Source: Carpediemonas membranifera BICM (lineage: Eukaryota; Protista; Fornicata). From it: a DNA stretch of 64,000 nt. Where the stretch lies: contig JAHDYR010000020.1 of NCBI GenBank assembly GCA_019828565.1, positions 167,769 to 231,768 on the forward strand, written 5' to 3'. The notes beneath the pieces are model-generated. The model did not search any database and was not told the origin of the DNA. It was given only the letters and a program-made list of their open reading frames with translations. Position numbers and translations under genes: made by a program. The stretch's first letter is position 1, and every line of letters begins with the position of its first letter. Shown piece by piece: positions 1,878 through 50,391 of this stretch.

Positions 1878-1984
1878 GATTTAGTCAGGCCGAAATTTCT
1901 TCAAAGTGCAGTTTAAGGACAGGTGGGTGTGGTATTTAGAGGTTTATGTGGAGGATTCATGTAAAGGTGACTTAAGCTGCTTTA

Positions 1985-2014
1985 GACTCAACAATTCTAA
2001 TCCTGCGCAGCACA
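1985..2014 (+). repeat. 30-bp direct repeat DR1 (left copy) bracketing the Fanzor N-terminal fragment
   Basis: gactcaacaattctaatcctgcgcagcaca, identical at 3810-3839. Confidence 0.95.
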
Positions 2015-2389
2015 CTACCTCCACTCACCCACTTCAGCCCTCGTCTGTACAATCGGGCTTTCGTGCTTTCAGTCGTCGGTCTGCACGAAAAGATGCGTCG
2101 TCCATCGTCTGTGTCGAATGCTGCTGTCTTCTTTCGCGTCTGTGCTCGTCTGTTACGCGCTCATCTGTCGTCCATTGCCGGCGTCTGAAGCTCATGACGT
2201 CGTCGTCTTCGTCGTCTTCGTCTGTTGTGAGAGACACTAGTGGTGGAAAGCGGTTGTAGCTAGTAGTAAAGACGCTTTGTGCTGTATGATGCTGGTTTCT
2301 TGTGTTTTGAGGGATGCTGCTAGCTGATGAACCCTGAAAAGAAATGATCGATGCAGGCAGCTCAATAGACTCCAATACCTTCCAAGATA

Positions 2390-3809
2390 TACACGGTGAA
2401 GGCTTCCGTTAACAAGGCCATTGGCGAGATTAACGGCGGAGGCGATAACAACGCGCCGCGGCGAGGAAATCTTGAACCCGGCATGCGTTCTTTCACGCAG
2501 GCTAAGTACACATTCACTTGCCTGCTTGCGTGCGTCTCTGCATCTGCGCACGCGTTGACCCACCGAGGACGGTCAACCTGTTCGACCAGGAGGTCCTCAA
2601 GCAGATCGTCAGCATTGCTCAGCAAAAGGTGTCGAAGGCAAAGGCAGCGGATCGGTGCAGGTGGATTGGCGACCTGGAGATGTGGAGGGACCCTGACATA
2701 ACCCCACTCGTCCGGGACTTCAGGGAAGTCTACGTTGGAATTGCAGCGCCATTTCAGAGCTGGTTGGGCGAGTACTCCACAGCCACCCGGGTCTGGCTCT
2801 CGCGCGCGTCACCCGGGTACCTGACCCGTCTTCGTGCTGGATTAGAACGGGTGCGTCCGCTCCTCCATGATCGGCCGGGTGTTCGACAGGATTTTCTCGA
2901 CACCCAAGGCGAGCTCGACACTGAGGTTGCCGCCATAGCCGCCGATCATGGCATGCATCATCGTCAAATGCATGCATCGCCCGAGGGGCAACGGGTGGGT
3001 CGCACTGGTACCGTGGCCGAGGCCCTTGTCGGCGTGCTGTCGTGCGTCACGCGCATGAGTGCTGCAGTGACCAAGCTGGTCACACTCACTCGTGCCGTGA
3101 ACCTCGAGCTCAGTCAGGCCCTGCCAGAGCCGAAGCTCGTTCCGTTCGTGCCGATGGCGCCGGTCAGGCCTGGGTTCATGACCATCGAGCGCGGAGTAAC
3201 AGCGCTCACCCCAGCGATGAAGAGGCGCCTCCGTGTCTATCGGGATTGGTCAGCGAAGAGTAACTTGACCGACGAGCAGGTTGATAGATACGAGCGTGAT
3301 CACGGCGACATCACCAAGCTCCGCAGAGTGCTCTCTGTGAAGACTGACGGGGTCTCTGCTGCTGTGACGGTTTGGGTGGGTCGCGAGAAATACCGTGGCG
3401 GTCGGGTGGCTGACCGGCCCACGTACAAAGGTAGCAGCAACAAGCGGGCTCGGCTCGGTCAGGATGACGCCGAGGCTACTCCTGCCCCGGACATTCAAGC
3501 TCTCATGGGCTTCGACCCTGGTGCTCGGTCGCTGGGCGGCTACACGATCCGCCGCCCAGACGGGCAGAGTGTATCTGGCGTACTCGCTAAGTGTGGCTAC
3601 ACTGCCACCCCCTCTTTCCGCGTGAATATGAGCGCAGCATCGTTCAAAACGACAAGTCTAGAGGCTCTCAAACAGTCGATTAGGTTTGTCCATGAGAACA
3701 TCGTTCAGATCATCAACGAGGGGACGAGAAAAGTGTTTCCGCCGTGCGACTTTTGCCAATCACCGTCTGCGCCTGAAGCACTTCGCCCGGGCTGGACGTC
3801 ATTGTTTTG
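2390..3809 (+). pseudogene. Fanzor (TnpB-like RNA-guided nuclease) N-terminal part, frameshifted and 3'-truncated
   Basis: YTVKASVNKAI N-terminal strand; frameshift near 2530; KTDGVS motif (3343-3348); RuvC-I MGFDPG (Asp 3514-3516); frameshift near 3737 into a bridge-helix-like FRRATFANHRLRLKHFAR; stops at DR1. Confidence 0.72.
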
Positions 3810-3839
3810 GACTCAACAATTCTAATCCTGCGCAGCACA
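3810..3839 (+). repeat. 30-bp direct repeat DR1 (right copy)
   Basis: Identical to 1985-2014; its last 3 nt overlap the Gypsy TSD. Confidence 0.95.
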
Positions 3840-3841
3840 GT

Positions 3842-3892
3842 TGTCGCCACAATGGACTGATGTGAACAGGGTGCAGTTTATCTCACACTACA
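3842..3892 (-). repeat. 3' LTR (51 bp)
   Basis: tgtcgccacaatggactgatgtgaacagggtgcagtttatctcacactaca, identical to 8472-8522. Confidence 0.95.
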
Positions 3893-3908
3893 TTCCCCTC
3901 CAGAGGAA

Positions 3909-6900
3909 CTAGTCCAGTCTGTTGGCACGTCTGTGACCGGACTGAGGCTTGGCCTCGAAAGCCTTGATCGCACGGTCAAGGTCAGGGTGAGATGAACGAT
4001 AGTGGGTGAGAGCGGAGAGCGTCTTGATCTCAGTGTAACGCCGCTCGCTGTCTTCATCTGATTCATGCCCAAGCCAGTGAACAGTCAGAACTGGCTCGAG
4101 AGTGTCGGCTTCAAGACGCCAACCAACGATAGAGTCTACGACACCCCAGACAGTGTCGGACATGAACGCAACCTTGGCCTCTCCAACAGAGGGCTTACGA
4201 GGGAGCTTTGCGAGTCTGTTCGCATGACGCTTGATGATGACCTTGGTCACAGGATTCATCAGGCTGTAGGTATCAGGACCGTCAGCGGCTCCTGTCACCA
4301 GATAAGGTCCGCGCAAGTGGAACTCAAGACGAGGTACAGGCTGGTCACGCTTAACCAGGACCCAATCGCCGATATTGAGCTGCTTCGAACCGAATCGAGG
4401 GAAATGCTCATCCTTCCACCTCCTCCGGTGAAGCTGAGCTGCCTGTAGCTTGGCAATAACGCTCTTAGCGCGCTCCTGCGTCTCGGCAGTGATATGCGAT
4501 CTGTCAGGAGTGATAGGTTCGCCGTTCTTAACAGCGTGATGGACAAGTGCAGCCGAAAGAGCAACCTCTCTAGGCGTAGCGCCTCCCAGTGACACACTGG
4601 GGGTAGCATTGATGTTAATCTCCGCTTGGGACATAGCATTGCGCCATTGGTGGCGCGGACAATCAGATAACGTTCCAATAGCGACCCTAAGGTGCTTGTT
4701 GGCCTCCCGGTTAAATCTCTCAACGAGGCCATTTGCCTCGTGCCTTTCAGGCGTAGTTACGCGATGGTAAATGCCGAAGGTAGCGCAGAAGGTCTTAAAG
4801 TCATGGTTGCAAAACTGAGTACCACTGTCAGTTACAATCTGGTCGGGGCACGCCCAACGCGCGATGATGATCGACCGGATTGCCATAATAGTCTCGCGAG
4901 CCTCAGTGCTCTTAAGAGGGATAAGGTGGGTGAGGTGGGAACCTCCGTCAACGCATGTCATGATATACCGGTAGCCCGAGTCCTCAGGAGTTATAGGTCC
5001 GATAGTATCCACGTGGAGCGTGGCCAACGGCCTGTCAGCTGGCAGCTGGCGCTCGATGTACATGACATTTGGTTGAGCACGGTGTGAGCGCTGACATGTC
5101 ACACACCGTTCTACATAAGACTCCACGTCCTTTCGAGCCCCAGTCCAACTGAGTCCGGCAACCTCCAAGAGGTGTAGGGTGGTGTCTACTCCGGCATGAT
5201 GCCTGCTGTGCACAGACTGGAAGCGAGATTGCTTGATGTCGTCAGTCAGAACAGCGTTCTCCCCAATATACATGATGGGAAGCCTTGACAGGCTGTCAGC
5301 AGCCGTGTTGTCGCGCCCAGGGATATGCACGACTTCATAGATGGGGAAGCGGGCCATCTCTAAGGCCCAACGAGTGACCTTGGGCGTCGAGGATGCAACC
5401 ATCGACACAAGGCATGAGTTGTCAGTGTGGAGTGATATGGGCGTACCAATAAGCATAGGACGGAAGCGCTCCAGAGCAGCGAACACAGCCCACTGCTCTT
5501 TCTCGACAGTCTTCCAGACACACTGCTGTTTGTCAAAGCGGCGTGAAAAGAATGCCAAAGGGTGGCCATCCTGCACCAGGACGGCACCAACGCCCACGTT
5601 GCTCGCGTCAGTATAGAGATCGAGTGGCTTGTTGGGATTGAAATGATAGAGTGTGACCGCCTCACTTGCAGCCTCTCTCAAACACTCAAGGGAGTGGCGT
5701 CTCTGCTCAACTGAAATCGTCTCCCCGGCCTTAAACCTCTCGAGAGGGTCTGCCTTTCCGATGTAGTCCGGTATAAATCTTCTGATAAAGCCAAAAACCC
5801 CGAGCACATGTTGTGCTTCGGACTTGTTCAGAGGGACACGGATATTAGTCAATGAGTCGAGTCTGGATGGGTGGATCGAGACCCCCGTTCCAGACACAAC
5901 CGAACCCAGATAATCAATTTGGGTTAAGCCAATGTGAGACTTGGGCCCCGACAGCCGGATTCGATGATCACAGCAGACGTCAAACAGCTCCTCAACCACA
6001 GAAAGGAGGTCTGCAGCCGAGCCTGCGTAGCAGAGTACGTCATCAACAAAGATCAGGCACTTAAGCTTGTACTTGCGACGCAGACCATCAAGTCTGGACT
6101 GAAAGATCATAGGCCCATTCATGAGGCCAAAGGGCAGACGACGGAAGACATATCTCTCGCCACGATGTTCAAAGCCTGTCGCCATAGAGGCCTGCTCGGT
6201 CAGATTGAGCTGATGGAAACCCGAGCGGAGGTCGAAGCAGGCAAACACCTCGGAGCCTCGACATGCCTCGTAAAGCTCTTCCACAGTTGGCATAGGATGT
6301 TCCTCGACCTCAGTAGCCGCGTTAACATGGCGGTAGTCGAGAATGGGTCTGAACGGTGGGTTCGCGGAGGGCTTACCAACCATAAACACGGGGGAGAGCC
6401 ATTTCAGGTCAGCAGTTGTGCTCTCGATGGTCCCGTTATCAAGCATAGACTCAATAAAGGTATCCATGGCCTCGAGGTGGGCCTTGTTCCGGATAGGTCT
6501 CATGATCTGGGAGGGGACGATGCCATCCTTCCAGATAATGTCAAACTCTGCCAAATCAGCTCCCGATGGGTGCAACGGACCAAAGAGCTCACTATGCTTC
6601 TCGCACAGTGCATGGAACTTAGGTGCAAGATCACCGAGGTTCGAATCATGGATAGTAGGAAGAGTGTAGCCGCCGACATATAGGTTAGCTAACTCAACAA
6701 AGTCGTTGACCGGATCTGTCGAAGGAGTCTTATCCTCCTCCGGCTCTGGCTTATTAACGCCAAAGGACAGTCCTACTGCACGCATGGCAGTCTTACCCAG
6801 GATGAGTGCCGTGGGTAGGTCAGGGATAATAACAGCATCAAGCTGTCGGCCACGCACCGGGAAACAACCGGGCATGGAGACAATAGGGCTCAGCGTCGTA

Positions 6901-8447
6901 GTACCAACATAGCAGCCACACTGGCCATTCCAGCTGTTGACGTGGCCCTCGGCCGGTGTAACTGTTAGACCCAGGCGTTCAGCCGCCTCAGGCCTCATCA
7001 TAACGGCAAACTGCTTGGCACAAGAGTCGGCCTCTGCAACAACCACAGGACCGCCGTGACGTGTGCTAACCTCGACGAGGAAGTCATCGTAGGTTTCAGG
7101 CAGCTCAGTCATCATGGGTTCAACATAGATACCCGAGTGCTCAGCCTTCGGGATAAAACCATTGTAAGAGTTCTTGTTGCGTGTCGAGCGCCCTTCAGTC
7201 TTGACTCGGTCAGCGATGGACTCCAGAGTCACATTGTGCGCCTTCATAGCAGCTAAAGCAGTCTTACAAGGCTGCTTGTCGAGATCCTGAGCTCTCCGGA
7301 CATGGTTCATGAGCTTGGGGATGGTAAGGACCTTAGTAATGTCGGCTTGCTGCTTTGCATTCGCAGCCTGTAGGACGTGGCAGTCACTGCTACCGTGGTC
7401 GTCGACGAGGTGGAAGCAACAGAATTTCCCACCGGAGTTCTTCGGGCCTGCGGTCATCGCCCTCGGAGCGATGTCTCCCTTAACAGTACGGGAGAAGGGC
7501 TTGGACTGAGTGGAGATGGGGGTCACAGCCTCCATGACTCCATCAACTCTACGTAGAAAGTCGCGAAGCTCAGTGGACTTCTTGAGAGCCTCGCTAATCA
7601 AGGTGTCAACAGTCACAGTATGATCGAGTATGCGCCGAGAGTACCCCGTGCCAAAGAGGTAGTTGAGGGTGACGTCATTCGGGGCACGCACTCCTTCGAT
7701 GAGGAGCCTCTTAATCTCACTTCTTAGACCATGGTCATCGGAGCACTGAAGCGAATCCAGGGTCTGGCGGAAGGCCAATAGGAATGTGATGGTGGACTCG
7801 AGCGATTCGAGCCTTGTTCCGTGATTGACCTGCGACACAGCCGCCAAGATAGCTAGAGCATCAGAATCCGTCATCTTAAGTTCCTGACGCAAGTAGTCAA
7901 GGTAATTGTCGGCCTGCTTACCGAGGGCTTCGGTCTTGGATAGGGCCGTCTCCTTAGGGAGAGCGAGCGAGTGCTCTATGGTCTCCTCCATCGTCGTCAA
8001 ATAGTTAGCTCTTGCCTTCGAGAGCTTGTCTTCACGCTTAGCCTTAGCATCAGGCGTCTCCTCATCGGGAACAATCTGAAGAGTAGTAATATACTCCTTA
8101 AGCATGGTTACTGTTCGAGAGAGCTTCGTGAAACGGTCAGATGAACCGTTATACATCTTCGATGAGAGGTATGGCTCTATCTCTTGGGCCAAATACGACA
8201 CGAGTTCAGTAGCAGAGGTGAACTTTCGTGTTGATGAAGAGTAGGAATTGGGCAGAACCTTCAGCTCCGCCGTGGGGTCATGAATGGTGGCTAAGAAAGC
8301 CAATGCGGGTGCGTTCGATAGAACCTTCCCAAGTGTCAGCACGTTCTTGTTATCACTGAGATTGTGATTTTTCAGTAGGAGGATCCAGTGATTCCATGCA
8401 GCATAATCCCGTTTGTTAGGGGGATCCTTCAAAGCTGATATGTCCAT
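3909..8447 (-). CDS. Gag-Pol polyprotein (Gag, protease, RT, RNase H, integrase, chromodomain)
   Basis: Cys/His knuckle CCFHLVDDHGSSDC; protease EADSCA; RT DLRSGFHQ, LPFGL, FVDD; RNase H TDAS; integrase HHCC, D-D-E and GPY; C-terminal chromodomain-like WGVVDSIVGWR...VHWLGH. First ATG at 8447; the ORF track's GTG start lies inside the LTR. Confidence 0.95.
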   Translation of the reverse strand: MDISALKDPPNKRDYAAWNHWILLLKNHNLSDNKNVLTLGKVLSNAPALAFLATIHDPTAELKVLPNSYSSSTRKFTSATELVSYLAQEIEPYLSSKMYNGSSDRFTKLSRTVTMLKEYITTLQIVPDEETPDAKAKREDKLSKARANYLTTMEETIEHSLALPKETALSKTEALGKQADNYLDYLRQELKMTDSDALAILAAVSQVNHGTRLESLESTITFLLAFRQTLDSLQCSDDHGLRSEIKRLLIEGVRAPNDVTLNYLFGTGYSRRILDHTVTVDTLISEALKKSTELRDFLRRVDGVMEAVTPISTQSKPFSRTVKGDIAPRAMTAGPKNSGGKFCCFHLVDDHGSSDCHVLQAANAKQQADITKVLTIPKLMNHVRRAQDLDKQPCKTALAAMKAHNVTLESIADRVKTEGRSTRNKNSYNGFIPKAEHSGIYVEPMMTELPETYDDFLVEVSTRHGGPVVVAEADSCAKQFAVMMRPEAAERLGLTVTPAEGHVNSWNGQCGCYVGTTTLSPIVSMPGCFPVRGRQLDAVIIPDLPTALILGKTAMRAVGLSFGVNKPEPEEDKTPSTDPVNDFVELANLYVGGYTLPTIHDSNLGDLAPKFHALCEKHSELFGPLHPSGADLAEFDIIWKDGIVPSQIMRPIRNKAHLEAMDTFIESMLDNGTIESTTADLKWLSPVFMVGKPSANPPFRPILDYRHVNAATEVEEHPMPTVEELYEACRGSEVFACFDLRSGFHQLNLTEQASMATGFEHRGERYVFRRLPFGLMNGPMIFQSRLDGLRRKYKLKCLIFVDDVLCYAGSAADLLSVVEELFDVCCDHRIRLSGPKSHIGLTQIDYLGSVVSGTGVSIHPSRLDSLTNIRVPLNKSEAQHVLGVFGFIRRFIPDYIGKADPLERFKAGETISVEQRRHSLECLREAASEAVTLYHFNPNKPLDLYTDASNVGVGAVLVQDGHPLAFFSRRFDKQQCVWKTVEKEQWAVFAALERFRPMLIGTPISLHTDNSCLVSMVASSTPKVTRWALEMARFPIYEVVHIPGRDNTAADSLSRLPIMYIGENAVLTDDIKQSRFQSVHSRHHAGVDTTLHLLEVAGLSWTGARKDVESYVERCVTCQRSHRAQPNVMYIERQLPADRPLATLHVDTIGPITPEDSGYRYIMTCVDGGSHLTHLIPLKSTEARETIMAIRSIIIARWACPDQIVTDSGTQFCNHDFKTFCATFGIYHRVTTPERHEANGLVERFNREANKHLRVAIGTLSDCPRHQWRNAMSQAEININATPSVSLGGATPREVALSAALVHHAVKNGEPITPDRSHITAETQERAKSVIAKLQAAQLHRRRWKDEHFPRFGSKQLNIGDWVLVKRDQPVPRLEFHLRGPYLVTGAADGPDTYSLMNPVTKVIIKRHANRLAKLPRKPSVGEAKVAFMSDTVWGVVDSIVGWRLEADTLEPVLTVHWLGHESDEDSERRYTEIKTLSALTHYRSSHPDLDRAIKAFEAKPQSGHRRANRLD

Positions 8448-8471
8448 GTTCTTAATAGCAGTAGAAGCTTC

Positions 8472-8522
8472 TGTCGCCACAATGGACTGATGTGAACAGG
8501 GTGCAGTTTATCTCACACTACA
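8472..8522 (-). repeat. 5' LTR (51 bp)
   Basis: Identical to 3842-3892; contains TAAACTGCAC in element sense. Confidence 0.95.
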
Positions 8523-8525
8523 ACA

Positions 8526-8606
8526 GTGGGGACTGCTTCGGCGGCCATCTAACCAGGCAACAAGTCACCTCATGCCGCGCGGGGTGCGGTTTTGCTACTG
8601 TTTACG
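8526..8606 (+). repeat. 81-bp dispersed copy of 50110-50190
   Basis: Direct match with about 4 mismatches to the sequence spanning ATG 50132 of the RGS ORF. Confidence 0.9.
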
Positions 8607-8743: not shown

Positions 8744-9523
8744 TCATCCCTGGAGGTGGCTGATGGCAGCATTCGGGGCATCAGCGAGACACCTCTCGAT
8801 CGACCCCGGCTCACTGCACCCGACACAAATCAGGCCCCGCCTCTGCATCTCCACCACACACTTGTAATGGTATAGCTTCCCGCAGTCACAGGTGGCGAAG
8901 ATGGATACCGGCTTGTCGCAGAAAGTGCACACTGGGTCATGGGGAGTTGCCAGCTCTGCCAGGGCTCTCGGGCCGAGGATCAGGCGGAAGCTGTTGGGAT
9001 CCTGCCCCAGGTAGTGGTGCTGCTTGAGAGTCTTGATGACGGTGTCCATCACGGCCCTGGAGATCTTCGCAGATGTCCGCAGGTTGTTCAGCTGGGTCTC
9101 GGCGAGGGGGCCGTCCTTCTTGAGCCGAGCAATGAGAGAGGAGATGAAGACCCCGCGTTCTTTCTGGCCGATGCCGAGGACGTTGCTGAATATAATGGGA
9201 TCAACAGTGTTTGTGGAGGTCAGGACGACGTATGCGGCTTCGTCGAATGGATCATCGCTGCCTTGTAGCCAGTAGTAGTCTGGGAGTTCCTGCAGGACCA
9301 GTCGGTAGACGTTGGGCATTAGCTTGTTGACTTTGTCGATCATTTCGCGCACTAACTCTGTCTGACGCTCAACACCATCGACACCGGCTGAGTAATGGAG
9401 AAAAAGAAAGAACAAACGCGAGCATGTCTTTGAGAACATGTCCAGACGCATCACTGGATGCGCAAAGAACAACTTGAGCATTTGTGCCGGCGTCGGAACG
9501 GGTTCAGTTGGATCACGCGCCAT
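8744..9523 (-). CDS. NSE1: Smc5/6 complex subunit Nse1 (RING-type E3 ligase)
   Basis: LGPRALAEL winged-helix motif followed by a C-terminal RING CxxC...CxC..xHxxC...CxxC. Confidence 0.8.
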   Translation of the reverse strand: MARDPTEPVPTPAQMLKLFFAHPVMRLDMFSKTCSRLFFLFLHYSAGVDGVERQTELVREMIDKVNKLMPNVYRLVLQELPDYYWLQGSDDPFDEAAYVVLTSTNTVDPIIFSNVLGIGQKERGVFISSLIARLKKDGPLAETQLNNLRTSAKISRAVMDTVIKTLKQHHYLGQDPNSFRLILGPRALAELATPHDPVCTFCDKPVSIFATCDCGKLYHYKCVVEMQRRGLICVGCSEPGSIERCLADAPNAAISHLQG

Positions 9524-9542: not shown

Positions 9543-9570
9543 TGTTGCGCAGTATAAACACATTGTTCGA
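9543..9570 (+). repeat. 28-bp direct repeat DR2 (copy at the Fanzor 3' end)
   Basis: tgttgcgcagtataaacacattgttcga, identical at 10341-10368; similarity extends about 8 more nt with 2 mismatches. Confidence 0.95.
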
Positions 9571-9680
9571 ACCTCCAAGACAGGGCCTGAAAGGAACGAT
9601 CAAAGTGCCAAACTGTACAATATCATCCGTCCGTAGACGAATGTTGGCGGTTAGCCAATTGATGATACTGGAATGAAGTT
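9571..9680 (-). ncRNA. Candidate Fanzor omegaRNA scaffold
   Basis: Downstream of RuvC-III on the Fanzor-sense strand: an outer stem TATCAT/ATGATA around TTGGC-taacc-GCCAA and (CAT)TCGTC-TACG-GACG(GATG), a cUNCGg tetraloop hairpin. Ends at DR2, where a guide would begin. Confidence 0.5.
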
Positions 9681-9689
9681 TGAAGACGT

Positions 9690-10200
9690 GGGATGTGCGA
9701 CTGAACGGAGAGCCACTGAGCTCATCTTCCGTGGCAAGAGAACGCCACAGGATGTTCTCTGCAGCACTCTTGTCCCGATGATCAACATTCAGAGCATCAG
9801 GAACTGTTGCGCGCCACTGAGCACCACGGCACTGTCGATTTTCGCAGAGCATCACACGATGTGGGTGAACGTGCTGGTCATCACGCGGACGAACTCGCTT
9901 GCAGGGGCGTGGCAGTGAGGGCAGACGACGGTGGTGCGATCCTCGTTAACCATGTTAAGATCGACGACAATGTTATACCCCTTGAGAAGGGGAACTATCT
10001 CTCTCGCGAACTTTCGATATGGCGCGCAAGGAATGAACATACCAGCAGGCGTGGTGAATCCCGAGCTCCCGTAGAAGACTTTCAGGCGAATGGGGGTGGC
10101 GATGGGATGGTGGCGACCGAACTCCCGAGCCAACTGTTGGCCGCAGTGGGCGAAGTGCTTCTGGCGAACTATACAAGTGTAGAGGTGAATTTAATGTGGA
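9690..10200 (-). pseudogene. Fanzor C-terminal fragment (bridge helix, RuvC-II, Zn finger, RuvC-III), frameshifted
   Basis: IVRQKHFAHCG...VFYGSSGF...VNEDRTTVVCPHC (Glu 9942-9944); frameshift near 9855; HRVMLCENRQC...HRDKSAAENI (Asp 9772-9774). Confidence 0.82.
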
Positions 10201-10340
10201 ATAGAAGACAATGAGACGACGTGTGAGCGATTGTGATGTTGCAGCTGTGCTGACGTCCACGAAGAAGACGCTTTGTGGAAGCCCTGGAGAAGACGATCTC
10301 CCTACCGACTTTAGACGTGAGTAGGAGGGAGACAGGGCAG

Positions 10341-10368
10341 TGTTGCGCAGTATAAACACATTGTTCGA
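10341..10368 (+). repeat. 28-bp direct repeat DR2 (copy at the Fanzor 5' side)
   Basis: Identical to 9543-9570. Confidence 0.95.
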
Positions 10369-10479
10369 CCCTTCAATAGCACCCGCTTCCATCCATAAAA
10401 CTGCACTAAGTCAGCGAGCGTCCAAGTCATCGTCAAACTGTCATCACTCGAAAAATCTTTACTATATACTATACTACAC

Positions 10480-40751: not shown

Positions 40752-41657
40752 CTAGTCCCAGAATCCATCGTCGCTGTCCTCATCCATACCCCGGGGCGCA
40801 TACTTGCCCGTGTACACCCTGGCCTCCCTGCAGTACCTCCAATAGCCGCTGTCTTCCTTGACAGCGCCACTCTGCCCCGCCATCTTCTGCGCCTCCCCGG
40901 CCAGGCCATCCGCCCGCTCGTTACCAAGGATGCCGCTGTGGGCTTTGACATGGGCGATGACGAGGTCTCCCCCAGTGTGTCGGTCCAGGTAATAAACGAT
41001 CTTGTCCCACAGATCGGGGTTCCTATGCTTGGCAACGGGCTTGGCCAACCAAGCTCTGACCCAGCCCTGATTCACCGCATCCACTATGTACTTTGAATCA
41101 CTCAAAATGGCTACATTCTCGCCCTGTCTGATGCTTTTGAGTGCCTTCAGGACTCCCCGGAGCTCCATCCGGTTATTCGTTGAGAGTTGGTAGCCCTTGC
41201 TCCATTCTACGACAGGTTCCCCAGGACGCATGATAACCGTACCGTAGCCGCCGACGCCTGGGTTTGGAGAGGCGGCACCGTCGGTAAAAATGACCGAGTC
41301 AAACTTGAAGTCGCGAAAGAGGGCGTGCTCGGGCTCGAGTCCCCCTGAGGTAACAGCTGCTTGCACAGCATCAGCTCTTCTCAGCCTGACATGACGAGCG
41401 AGTGGCGTAGGCGGCGTGGCTGTGCGAGTCGCCTCTGAAGTCGAGGGACAGCTTGCTGTCAGGGGCACATTCGTCCCGAAACTACCGCTAGCGTCGGAAT
41501 TTTGTAGCGTTTCTGAACGCTTTTTAGCTTCTGCGCAGTGCTGCTTGTGTTGCTGGAGCAGCTGGACAGCAAGCACCTGATCCTCGCGAGAAAGCTGTGC
41601 AACAAGGTTATCAAGACCAATTGCTGACTTAACAGCCAAATAATCCCGTTCTGACAT
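40752..41657 (-). CDS. Bacterial-type ribonuclease HI with N-terminal extension
   Basis: FTDGAASPNPGVGGYG, TNNRMEL, SDSKY, NPDLW, HVKAHSG..GNERAD, EDSGY. Confidence 0.92.
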   Translation of the reverse strand: MSERDYLAVKSAIGLDNLVAQLSREDQVLAVQLLQQHKQHCAEAKKRSETLQNSDASGSFGTNVPLTASCPSTSEATRTATPPTPLARHVRLRRADAVQAAVTSGGLEPEHALFRDFKFDSVIFTDGAASPNPGVGGYGTVIMRPGEPVVEWSKGYQLSTNNRMELRGVLKALKSIRQGENVAILSDSKYIVDAVNQGWVRAWLAKPVAKHRNPDLWDKIVYYLDRHTGGDLVIAHVKAHSGILGNERADGLAGEAQKMAGQSGAVKEDSGYWRYCREARVYTGKYAPRGMDEDSDDGFWD

Positions 41658-43476: not shown

Positions 43477-43597
43477 CGCCGAAGCAGCCCCCACCTGGCC
43501 GGTAGACGTTGAAGATAGTGTAGTTGTCCCGGATGAGAGACGCCGCGATGTCTCCCAGCATGCGGTCTCGGGCCCACTTGCCGTTCACAGCCTCATT
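43477..43597 (-). repeat. 121-bp inverted copy of 50007-50127
   Basis: Reverse complement matches 50007-50127; the ORF track shows identical peptides for both. Confidence 0.92.
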
Positions 43598-48584: not shown

Positions 48585-50132
48585 TTACACCGCCGCTAGC
48601 AGGGACATGCCGCTCTCGCCACTCCCCACGCGGCCGTGGCTCCACCTAGAGAGCAGGGTCTCGTTCTTGAGCATGCCGCGGCGGTAGAGATCGTACTCCA
48701 TGAGCAGGTACGCCGAGGACGACTGGAACCGTTTGAATGAATCAAACGAGAGTGTCTGTGCGACCTCGATTTCCATGGGCCGGAACATGTCGGCGGACGC
48801 CCTGGTACCCTCGCTCAGCTTCTTCACACAGAGGGTAACCTGTCTCCGGGCATGGTCGAACACGTTCACCAGCCGGGGCGCGTTGTCCGCTACAAACTCG
48901 CTATATATCTGCCACGCCAGTGCGTTTGTGACCCGTGACCGGAAGCGGTGGACCTGCATGAAGAAGTCCAGATTCTCGTCACTCCGCTCGACCTGGAGGA
49001 AGCGCCTAAAGTATGCCAGAGAAACATCGTCCCGGATGATGTCTGGCAGTGACGGGGCGATGCCGCACGACTTGGTGAGGCTGACGGCGTATAGCACGCC
49101 GAGGCAGTACATGACACCGCAGACAGAATCTACAATGAGGTACGTCGTCGAGGGGGCGTGGTTCGAGAAAGCTATGAAGTACAGTACCATCCTAGAGGCG
49201 CTGTACATCCAGGCGGCGACGGACACGATGAGGGTGTCTGTGGAGACGAATAGCATGACGACTTTGGAGAACAGGATGACGAACATGCCGGCAGACGTCA
49301 GCATGAAGAACACGACGACATCAACCAGACGGTGGACGTCGTTGTCCGAGAACATGGCGAACTGTTGCATGATCAAGTAGGCCAGGACGATGGCGAACGA
49401 TGCTACCCACAGAAGGAGGTTCATCACAAGGAACACGACGTAGTTGAGGATGGTGGATATGCCGGCCGCCCGTGTGGTGTAATACACCTTGAATATGGCG
49501 TTCAGGAAGGACTGCATGACGATGCAGACGAGGAAGAAGTGCGTGGCGTTCGACAGGAGGAGCTCTAGAACGTAGAACGTCCGCTCCATGCCAGATCCAC
49601 TGTCGTCGAGGTCACTGGACTGTTCTTTGAAGATGGAGACGTACAGGAGCACCACATAGAGGATCGAGTAGACTGAGATGTAGCTCAGCAAAAGGCTCGA
49701 ATTGAACCATGGAATCTGCGCATCGGTGAGGCGGGACTGTCGTATGCTGCTCTTGTAGTATTGCCCGTGCTGTACTTGGTGGAGTGTGAGGCACAAGAGG
49801 AACAATGCAGCGAAGAAAAGGGAAAGGTGGCAAAACGCCGAGAGAACTAAATGGATGAGACTTAATTCGAAGCTTGTATCACCGTCTGGCATATTTGACT
49901 TTGCAATGATGAAGCTAAGAGGCGCGGTTCCGTTAGGTGGAAGAACGCCGATGACGTATGGTGCAGTTTTGCATTCGGACGCCTGCTCCAGATCCTCAAG
50001 CGTCAGAATGAGGCTGTGAACGGCAAGTGGGCCCGAGACCGCATGCTGGGAGACATCGCGGCGTCTCTCATCCGGGACAACTACACTATCTTCAACGTCT
50101 ACCGGCCAGGTGGGGGCTGCTTCGGCGGCCAT
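48585..50132 (-). CDS. 7TM-RGS protein (start may be ATG 49892)
   Basis: About 7 hydrophobic helices followed by RGS FRRFLQVERSDENLDFF...IYSEFVADNAPRLVN...DSFKRF. Confidence 0.85.
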   Translation of the reverse strand: MAAEAAPTWPVDVEDSVVVPDERRRDVSQHAVSGPLAVHSLILTLEDLEQASECKTAPYVIGVLPPNGTAPLSFIIAKSNMPDGDTSFELSLIHLVLSAFCHLSLFFAALFLLCLTLHQVQHGQYYKSSIRQSRLTDAQIPWFNSSLLLSYISVYSILYVVLLYVSIFKEQSSDLDDSGSGMERTFYVLELLLSNATHFFLVCIVMQSFLNAIFKVYYTTRAAGISTILNYVVFLVMNLLLWVASFAIVLAYLIMQQFAMFSDNDVHRLVDVVVFFMLTSAGMFVILFSKVVMLFVSTDTLIVSVAAWMYSASRMVLYFIAFSNHAPSTTYLIVDSVCGVMYCLGVLYAVSLTKSCGIAPSLPDIIRDDVSLAYFRRFLQVERSDENLDFFMQVHRFRSRVTNALAWQIYSEFVADNAPRLVNVFDHARRQVTLCVKKLSEGTRASADMFRPMEIEVAQTLSFDSFKRFQSSSAYLLMEYDLYRRGMLKNETLLSRWSHGRVGSGESGMSLLAAV

Positions 50133-50391
50133 CTAACCAGGCAACAAGTCACCTCATGCCGCGCGGGGCGCGGTTTTGCTGATGTTTACGTGAGCGTGAA
50201 TAAATTGAGTTTTGCATCGCTGATTGGTCAGGTGCACCTTGTAGTAGTAGTTTCTCAACCTCGGCTCCATTCCCACCGTCTCAGAGAACCACTCCCCCTC
50301 CTTAACCCACAAAGATAAGACCCGAGTCCCGACCACAGGCTGTCGCCTGACCGCGGCCCATCCAACAGACACACTCAAACCTACTCACAGT

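Follow-up and report, generated by a model that had tools for sequence, protein, structure and literature searches.

The stretch of the Carpediemonas membranifera BICM genome analysed here (64,000 nucleotides of contig JAHDYR010000020.1, positions 167,769 to 231,768; hereafter, the window) carries, on the minus strand, an intact-looking Ty3/gypsy long terminal repeat (LTR) retrotransposon of 4681 bp. The interpretation we favor, with a probability of about 0.6, is that this is an intact element with genuine 51-bp LTRs and a degenerate chromodomain, in which a palindrome replaces the tRNA primer site, reverse transcription being likely primed by an element RNA dimer paired through that palindrome. 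Should this be the case, functional LTRs could be shorter than any previous limit, and the element would represent a minimal system, with the promoter, the 3'-end signal, the R region and both integrase attachment (att) sites accommodated within 51 nt.

The two LTRs (5', 8472-8522; 3', 3842-3892; both minus strand) are identical, start with TG and end with CA, and the identity stops at the repeat borders. On either side, the element is flanked by a target site duplication (TSD) of 5 bp, ACAGT on the plus strand (8523-8527 at the 5' side, within the X1 contig described below, and 3837-3841 at the 3' side), and a polypurine tract (PPT), GGAGGGGAA (3893-3901, minus strand), directly adjoins the 3' LTR, so that the marks of a Ty3/gypsy element, namely, TG...CA direct repeats, a TSD in the 4-6-bp range and a PPT before the 3' LTR, are all present. 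A single gag-pol open reading frame (ORF) of 1512 amino acids without an internal stop (3909-8447, minus strand) accounts for 97% of the element, with a leader of 24 nt and a trailer of 16 nt. The pol domains follow the Ty3/gypsy order of protease, reverse transcriptase (RT), RNase H and integrase (Pfam matches at aa 463-551, 698-849, 937-1034 and 1073-1235, respectively). The coding capacity is of the autonomous type, with RT, RNase H and integrase motifs in an uninterrupted gag-pol and an atypical protease triad. The LTRs, the TSD, the PPT and the unbroken ORF had all been described in an earlier reading of this DNA made without database searches (the sequence-only reading), and each was recovered in the present analysis; together with the domain order, they bear out its description of an intact autonomous-type Ty3/gypsy element. 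Its further claim, that identical LTRs imply recent activity, may hold but is weakly based, repeats of 51 nt being a poor clock for an insertion even when identical.

Part of this structure is covered by contigs from three runs of a single sample (X1-X3), which were available in assembled form and, at a guess, might derive from RNA. An X1 contig (300 nt, depth 2.8) spans positions 8255-8553, that is, internal sequence, the 5' LTR, the TSD and 26 nt of the flank, reaching 31 nt past the LTR without a substitution and with one inserted base, perhaps an error, within the LTR; further contigs are exact, in pieces, over 3869-4726, and none of the contigs listed bridges the 3' junction. The read support on which the sequence-only reading had made the 51-mer and the TSD depend is thus in place for the 5' LTR and its TSD, in one contig, and not for the 3' junction. 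Misassembly that shortened or created the LTR or the TSD would be compatible with the inserted base, the unbridged junction and the use of nanopore reads in the published host assembly (here and below, published work is cited from those parts of it that were available), but such an artefact is very improbable given the 1512-codon frame without a stop, the exact TSD and the lack of substitutions in the contigs over both covered segments. An X2 contig that ends at LTR nt 24 with four unmatched letters was left unused because contigs cannot show RNA ends, and no weight was given to stretches of the element that lack contig coverage.

Length of the LTR and host-like signals within it

An LTR of 51 bp is unusually short, falling below the 100-bp minimum applied in published surveys, which agrees with the detector default cited in the sequence-only reading, and surveys with such a minimum would miss elements of this kind. 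Relatives of the element were collected as 87 loci, fetched via alignments of relatives, with the best 80 of 136 metagenome hits kept; because the search alignment represented one subgroup and only these best hits were retained, the relatives are not a neutral sample. Under a purine-tract rule, 17 of 36 relative junctions gave an LTR length, namely, 73, 82, 92, 111 and 126 bp and twelve of at least 225 bp, making 51 bp the shortest among the LTRs measured here. The lengths picked for L013 (1272) and L017 (521) conflict with stop positions and are probably wrong. The only closed LTR pair with a TSD among the measured relatives is that of L050 (5895-10434), a complete 4.5-kb element with 73-bp LTRs, a 4-bp TSD and a 12-nt palindrome; the lengths for L024 and L037 were read off circular contigs. 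Thus, LTRs shorter than 100 bp recur in the lineage, so that 51 bp appears to be the short end of a range, and, in this gene-dense genome, a tendency of the whole lineage would have reached its extreme in the short LTR, as opposed to a one-off deletion.

The opposite possibility, that the element is a one-off copy of a longer-LTR parent in which most of the 3' U3 was lost and the shortened LTR was then copied to both ends, yielding a dead end or an element dependent on read-through, has to be considered given that the LTRs of 14 of the 17 measured relatives exceed 100 bp, that no second copy is seen in the 64-kb window, and that the sole contig containing the 5' LTR continues into the upstream flank, as read-through from the neighbouring gene on the minus strand, or DNA, would. 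This scenario appears distinctly unlikely because the LTR retains, at 62 nt before the ATG, the motif found upstream in the host, both att ends, the PPT and the palindrome abut correctly, three relatives have LTRs shorter than 100 bp, and the neighbouring elements have terminal repeats of 37-41 bp, one of these with TAAAC at the same nt 13-17. The window contains no third copy of the LTR and no solo LTR (the next best ungapped match is 27 of 51), and a 26-nt LTR pattern had no matches among the metagenome contigs.

Within its 51 bp, the LTR carries host-like signals. A TAAA is found no more than 60 nt past the stop codon in 19 of 24 host ORFs (1000 shuffles: mean 4.0, maximum 10; opposite strand: 7), and the first TAAA past the stop codon of the element, 31 nt from the first base of that codon, lies in the 3' LTR. 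The motif AAACTGCAC occurs 13 times in the window, compared with 0.47 in shuffles, with 12 of the 13 copies located outside the listed ORFs, and for four of the 11 host copies, the ATG of an ORF of at least 166 aa follows at 27-44 nt. The copy in the 5' LTR, 62 nt before the gag ATG, includes the TAAA of the LTR; the host upstream motif is represented there by TAAACTGCAC (LTR nt 13-22; 8501-8510, minus strand), which, judging by the motif counts, is likely the core promoter. The sequence-only reading had pointed to GATAAACTGCAC as an overlap of a poly(A)-like hexamer with the host promoter; this string is indeed present in the LTR, as are TAAA and the host motif, but in the host the signal resembles the tetramer TAAA, and, since ATAAACTGCAC is found whole at three host sites too, the promoter motif itself may account for the overlap.

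With transcription initiated within or beyond this motif, TAAA would fall into U3 and be transcribed only at the 3' end, and R would be short. Specifically, transcription would begin at or just past TAAACTGCAC in the 5' LTR and the same TAAA would serve in the 3' LTR as the signal for the 3' end, leaving U3 short and R roughly 5-15 nt long; for Sire, mouse mammary tumour virus and Rous sarcoma virus, R regions of 10-21 nt have been recorded (PMC3601003). Folding of the LTR plus leader RNA was no better than that of shuffles (z -0.7 to 1.5).

The palindrome at the primer-binding position

The element shows no tRNA primer site of the TGG type, which is usual though not universal in Ty3/gypsy elements: TGG is absent right after the 5' LTR, with GAAGCTTC there instead. 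Rfam and tRNA scans of the window produced no matches. The primer-binding position is occupied by a perfect 10-nt palindrome, AGAAGCTTCT (8463-8472, minus strand), the first letter of which is the last A of the 5' LTR. The missing tRNA site, the conserved palindrome and the sub-100-bp LTRs of the relatives were all overlooked in the sequence-only reading. Together, the window and the 87 loci include 76 with RT, 58 with a usable gag start and 50 distinct elements, and a palindrome of at least 10 bp, placed at a CA no more than 200 nt before gag, is present in 30 of these 50 (window included), compared with 1.74 expected from shuffles. In five relatives, the divergence of the repeats by itself defines the LTR end, and the palindrome is directly next to it, the LTR ending at ACA in L007, L012, L017 and L050 and 2 nt beyond in L023. 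Among 37 junctions that were set by hand and selected for showing a palindrome, the A of the LTR pairs with the closing T in 34, and 21 different palindrome sequences are represented, which indicates that symmetry, not sequence, is kept. One family of relatives (L037, L039, L040, L056, L057, L083 and L044) combines LTRs of about 92 bp with a palindrome that has the same GAAGCTTC core as the element.

Comparison of these sequences suggests, at slightly better than even odds, a lineage-wide palindromic primer site with priming via a dimer of element RNA. In the proposed route, two element RNAs would pair head to tail across AGAAGCUUCU, and one of them would be cut before the closing U, likely by the RNase H of the element, giving a 3' end beside the last base of the LTR; in Tf1, RNase H makes the primer cut. 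Minus-strand synthesis would then proceed from the cut 3' end, plus-strand synthesis would start from the PPT, and the integrase would make a staggered cut of 5 bp. The calculated energy of the intermolecular duplex of the element's palindrome is -13 kcal/mol, and 10 nt make a poor hairpin and a good duplex. A Tf1-type complement between the LTR and the primer site is not apparent in the element (longest helix, 5 bp, matched by 88% of the shuffles), nor is a downstream complementary partner (longest helix, 6 bp, matched by 18%), and neither is enriched across the 37 junctions. The two loci that have TGG right after CA plus 2 nt (L042 and L086) fall outside the clade that includes the element in the RT-RNase H trees described below.

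Several observations weigh against the preferred reading. A single copy was seen and no annotated protein of the element's family turned up, the protease triad is DSC instead of DTG or DSG, and the relatives, about 30% identical to the query, were found with the alignment of one subgroup. Under the automatic rule, 20 of the 50 elements are palindrome-less, some through a wrong gag start or a position outside the clade: three have a palindrome when examined by hand (L037, L045 and L060), six lie outside the clade, and L001, L015, L016, L021, L027, L036, L043, L049, L055, L062 and L068 belong to the clade and lack a palindrome by the rule. The palindrome-bearing locus L078 falls outside the clade in the 48-sequence tree. 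The palindromes of several relatives consist of A and T only, with energies of -4 to -7 kcal/mol, which is thin for a primer, and TAAA is found in the last 60 nt of the LTR at only 18 of the 37 junctions. Finally, the palindrome suits a packaging dimer signal equally well.

The last point underlies an alternative that keeps the genuine short LTR but takes the palindrome for a dimerization/packaging or integrase-end signal, the primer being, for example, a tRNA on TGGCGACA where the LTR has its 3' end, or a small RNA. Retroviral dimer initiation sites are palindromes (PMC5445492), yet for a packaging signal the exact placement at the LTR border and the closing A-T pair fixed at nearly all junctions would be needless. 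In the same vein, TGGCGACAG, across the LTR end, matches the start of the TGG site in L042 and in DGLT-A (PMC5006619), but the LTRs of the relatives end in CCACA-like att sites without TGG, and TGGCGACA is located inside the duplicated, TSD-flanked LTR. Even with the weakness of the A/T-only palindromes counted in its favor, we consider this alternative unlikely, albeit a serious one. Under the preferred reading, in which the palindrome is the primer site, the tRNA-less start of reverse transcription, a question raised by Skipper and GalEa, becomes directly testable, because natural variants already provide compensatory sequences.

Gag-Pol domains and the place of the element among its relatives

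The gag region (about aa 1-460; 7068-8447, this and the following domains on the minus strand) contains a knuckle-like motif, C-x2-H-x4-H-x4-C, at aa 343-356 and aligns with the host paralog P0219; a Pfam search gave no match for it. The aspartic protease (6795-7061) has the atypical triad DSC where P0219 has DTG, and matches Asp_protease_2 as a fragment with E 0.0048, short of the Pfam cut-off. The RT core with FVDD (5901-6356; RVT_1, E 3.6e-20), RNase H (5346-5639; RT_RNaseH, E 1.9e-23) and the H2C2 and DDE core of the integrase (4743-5231; Integrase_H2C2, E 1.4e-7, and rve, E 6.5e-13) are followed by a GPY motif with a predicted SH3-like integrase C-terminal domain (4143-4400) and by the chromodomain (aa 1436-1490; 3978-4142).

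The chromodomain was missed by the Pfam (including Chromo) and PDB sequence searches but is detected by our own hidden Markov model (HMM), a profile of ten relatives, with 37.8 bits; when only the last 130 aa are scored, it gives 43.5 bits compared with at most 4.8 bits in the 368 of 500 shuffles that had reported scores. A model of the integrase C-terminus derived from 37 sequences (predicted local distance difference test, pLDDT, 88) predicts an SH3-like domain, with weak matches to the Ty3 and foamy virus integrases, and then a chromodomain fold, the best match of which is the Chp1 chromodomain (Z 7.2, middling for this tool; 1.6 Å over 54 residues); a Foldseek comparison with chromodomains gave a probability of 1.0 at E about 0.007-0.04. 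A single-sequence fold of the integrase region was discarded (pLDDT 33). Compared with the relatives, the middle Trp of the aromatic cage is present, the last one is lost and the first one is shifted or lost, so that the element lacks the three-residue cage that characterizes Group I chromodomains, and, the cage being incomplete, reading of methyl-lysine by this domain is not expected. To judge by the profile scores and the predicted structure, the chromodomain is real but degenerate.

The nearest protein to the element belongs to a second family of the same host (46% identity over RT-RNase H), and all others among the best 150 representatives are at most 35% identical; C. membranifera has at least four Gypsy families, the three others being represented by KAG9395919, KAG9392073/KAG9389724 and KAG9390150. 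A search with the gag-protease protein was blank, which is uninformative because it also missed the known relative P0219. In the RT-RNase H trees (94, 80 and 48 sequences, the last set being the second minus 32 rows, for speed), the query joins two other host families (Shimodaira-Hasegawa-like approximate likelihood ratio test, SH-aLRT, 99.4) within a larger clade that consists mostly of environmental elements and also includes the fourth family of the host and one element from Aduncisulcus (SH 0.97; SH-aLRT 97.6). In all three trees, which were built without Tf1, Maggy and Skipper, the query RT is apart from the Lolium and Closterium elements, whose chromovirus label was deduced from their Pfam domains, and the deep nodes are weak. 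The designation 'chromovirus' given in the sequence-only reading is therefore only loosely right: the C-terminal chromodomain is there, but its cage is incomplete and the two plant chromoviruses compared do not join the RT of the element in the trees. Chromodomain-containing Gypsy elements outside the chromovirus clade do exist (PMC12477816). A second close Gypsy family is visible in X1-X3 at window positions 6490-6548 (59 nt with 5 differences, then divergence).

Neighbouring elements and comparison with known systems

The retrotransposon lies between two Fanzor-carrying elements, A and B, inserted 3 nt inside the right terminal repeat of element A (3803-3839; partner, 1978-2014), so that the 3'-side TSD shares the last 3 nt of this repeat. 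Element A (1978-3839) is bounded by TG...CA direct repeats of 37 bp, which agree at 34 of 37 positions, has no matching TSD, and contains a frameshifted Fanzor1-like ORF that runs only as far as the right repeat, short of the last two RuvC motifs; its repeat has many different flanks in other contigs. Element B (9543-10381, 839 bp), 1 kb away, has 40/41-bp terminal direct repeats, the second of them preceded by a purine tract, with TAAAC at nt 13-17, a 7-bp flanking duplication and a C-terminal Fanzor1 remnant on the minus strand that is 93% like P0139; between its end and the start codon of the next gene there are 19 nt. The Fanzor1 motif D-x(125-275)-[TS][TS]-xx-C4 finger-x-RD (PMC3627910) is present in 13 of 36 host paralogs, the copies in the window being broken or partial. 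The Fanzor1-like sequences gave Atlas matches with Cas12f1-like_TNB at 0.97, and Pfam and PDB sequence searches with them were blank; no Fanzor relatives were confirmed in viral contigs. The host Fanzor1/TnpB-like family (P0111-P0146) comprises 37 clusters that fall into three or more subfamilies, and the full set of three RuvC motifs is present in several of its members. The summed contig depth in X3 reaches tens of thousands over the Fanzor elements (3376-3840 and 9543-9700), compared with about 70 in the adjacent gene, which could be due to copy number or to an abundant RNA, such as a guide scaffold.

The repeats of A are akin to those of B (1 and 6 of 2000 shuffles were as good), and both follow a purine tract; the junction of element B fits a pattern seen in 8 of the 87 loci, and that of element A is similar. 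Against reading these repeats as LTRs, the left and right copies differ alike in both families, the flanking duplication of B is 7 bp long and A has none. The 51-bp LTR is modestly like the repeat of B (59 of 2000 shuffles were as good) and not at all like that of A, so that shared ancestry is not claimed. The broadest proposal, namely, that a large, unnamed lineage of protist chromodomain-containing Gypsy elements would dispense with tRNA through a genome-pairing palindrome, include the shortest autonomous LTR known and supply the machinery that moves the non-autonomous, Fanzor-carrying elements of this genome with their 37-41-bp LTRs, is a tentative one, doubtful as a whole but well short of far-fetched.

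Several other features of the window are worth recording. A short dispersed repeat starts at the insertion site (8526-8606) and recurs at 50007-50190 and 43477-43597, once inverted, and other dispersed repeats of 90-450 bp are up to 99% alike (41895-42347/56752-57206, 57402-57495/62931-63024 and 32543-32654/59628-59739). A 797-bp near-identical duplication (24013-24809/29961-30757) contains a ribosomal protein-like gene, S12e/L7Ae-like by eye. On the minus strand, the gene at 8744-9523 encodes a RING-like finger at its C-terminus and looks Nse1-like by eye, without a Pfam match; in it, a candidate 30-nt in-frame intron (9417-9388) is missing from X1, X2 and X3, and 40752-41657 encodes a prokaryote-type RNase H (Pfam E 8e-28) that fits the laterally acquired RNase H1 of the genome paper. 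C. membranifera is reported to be without several canonical replication and repair systems. The available main text of the paper contains none of the strings LTR, retro and transpos, its 10 readable supplements (one scanned file is unreadable) contain none of LTR, gypsy and retrotranspos, and the host Fanzor family is unmentioned in this text and these supplements.

In the literature compared, as far as its texts were available (the search did not extend to Repbase, GyDB, subscription journals or bioRxiv supplements), there is no primer-site palindrome in Gypsy elements, no autonomous LTR under 70 bp and no Fanzor in Carpediemonas; in addition to the papers cited elsewhere in the text, the comparison included PMC2774666, PMC4007536, PMC6875170, PMC6934838, PMC6317226, PMC11787283, 10.1101/137141 and 10.64898/2026.05.21.726589. 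The element resembles the chromoviruses (Tf1/Sushi, Maggy, Tcn1 and the plant Tekay, Reina and CRM) in domain order, the GPY motif, the C-terminal chromodomain and the 5-bp TSD, and, like Tf1/Sushi and Tcn1, has no tRNA primer site, but differs in its far shorter LTR, in lacking the complement between the LTR and the primer site that Tf1 needs, and in an RT apart from those of the Lolium and Closterium elements. The dictyostelid Skipper and DGLT-A are likewise chromodomain-containing Gypsy elements of protists with compact genomes; Skipper also has no TGG, with an unknown self-priming route having been proposed, and Skipper-2 has a chromodomain without the cage, but Skipper has a polypyrimidine tract instead of the palindrome, and the LTRs of these elements are 208-390 bp long in the available part of the table. 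Some Ectocarpus lineages and the oomycete Chronos, likened here by description only, also have an integrase chromodomain outside the chromovirus clade (PMC12477816). The shortest LTRs in the compared literature, 85 bp in SMART/FRetro129 and 105-117 bp in the FRetro64-like candidate autonomous partners on the Copia side (PMC3281118), belong, in the former case, to a non-autonomous element, unlike the full-coding element with 51 bp described here. The closest precedent is the fungal Copia element GalEa (PMC5445492), which differs in having two main palindrome sequences and a complementary 9-mer 12-41 nt downstream, compared with 21 sequences and no such partner in the Gypsy lineage analysed here, but in which the primer site is similarly replaced by a palindrome, termed the conserved hairpin site, that takes in the last A of the 5' LTR, the mechanism being left unresolved in that work.

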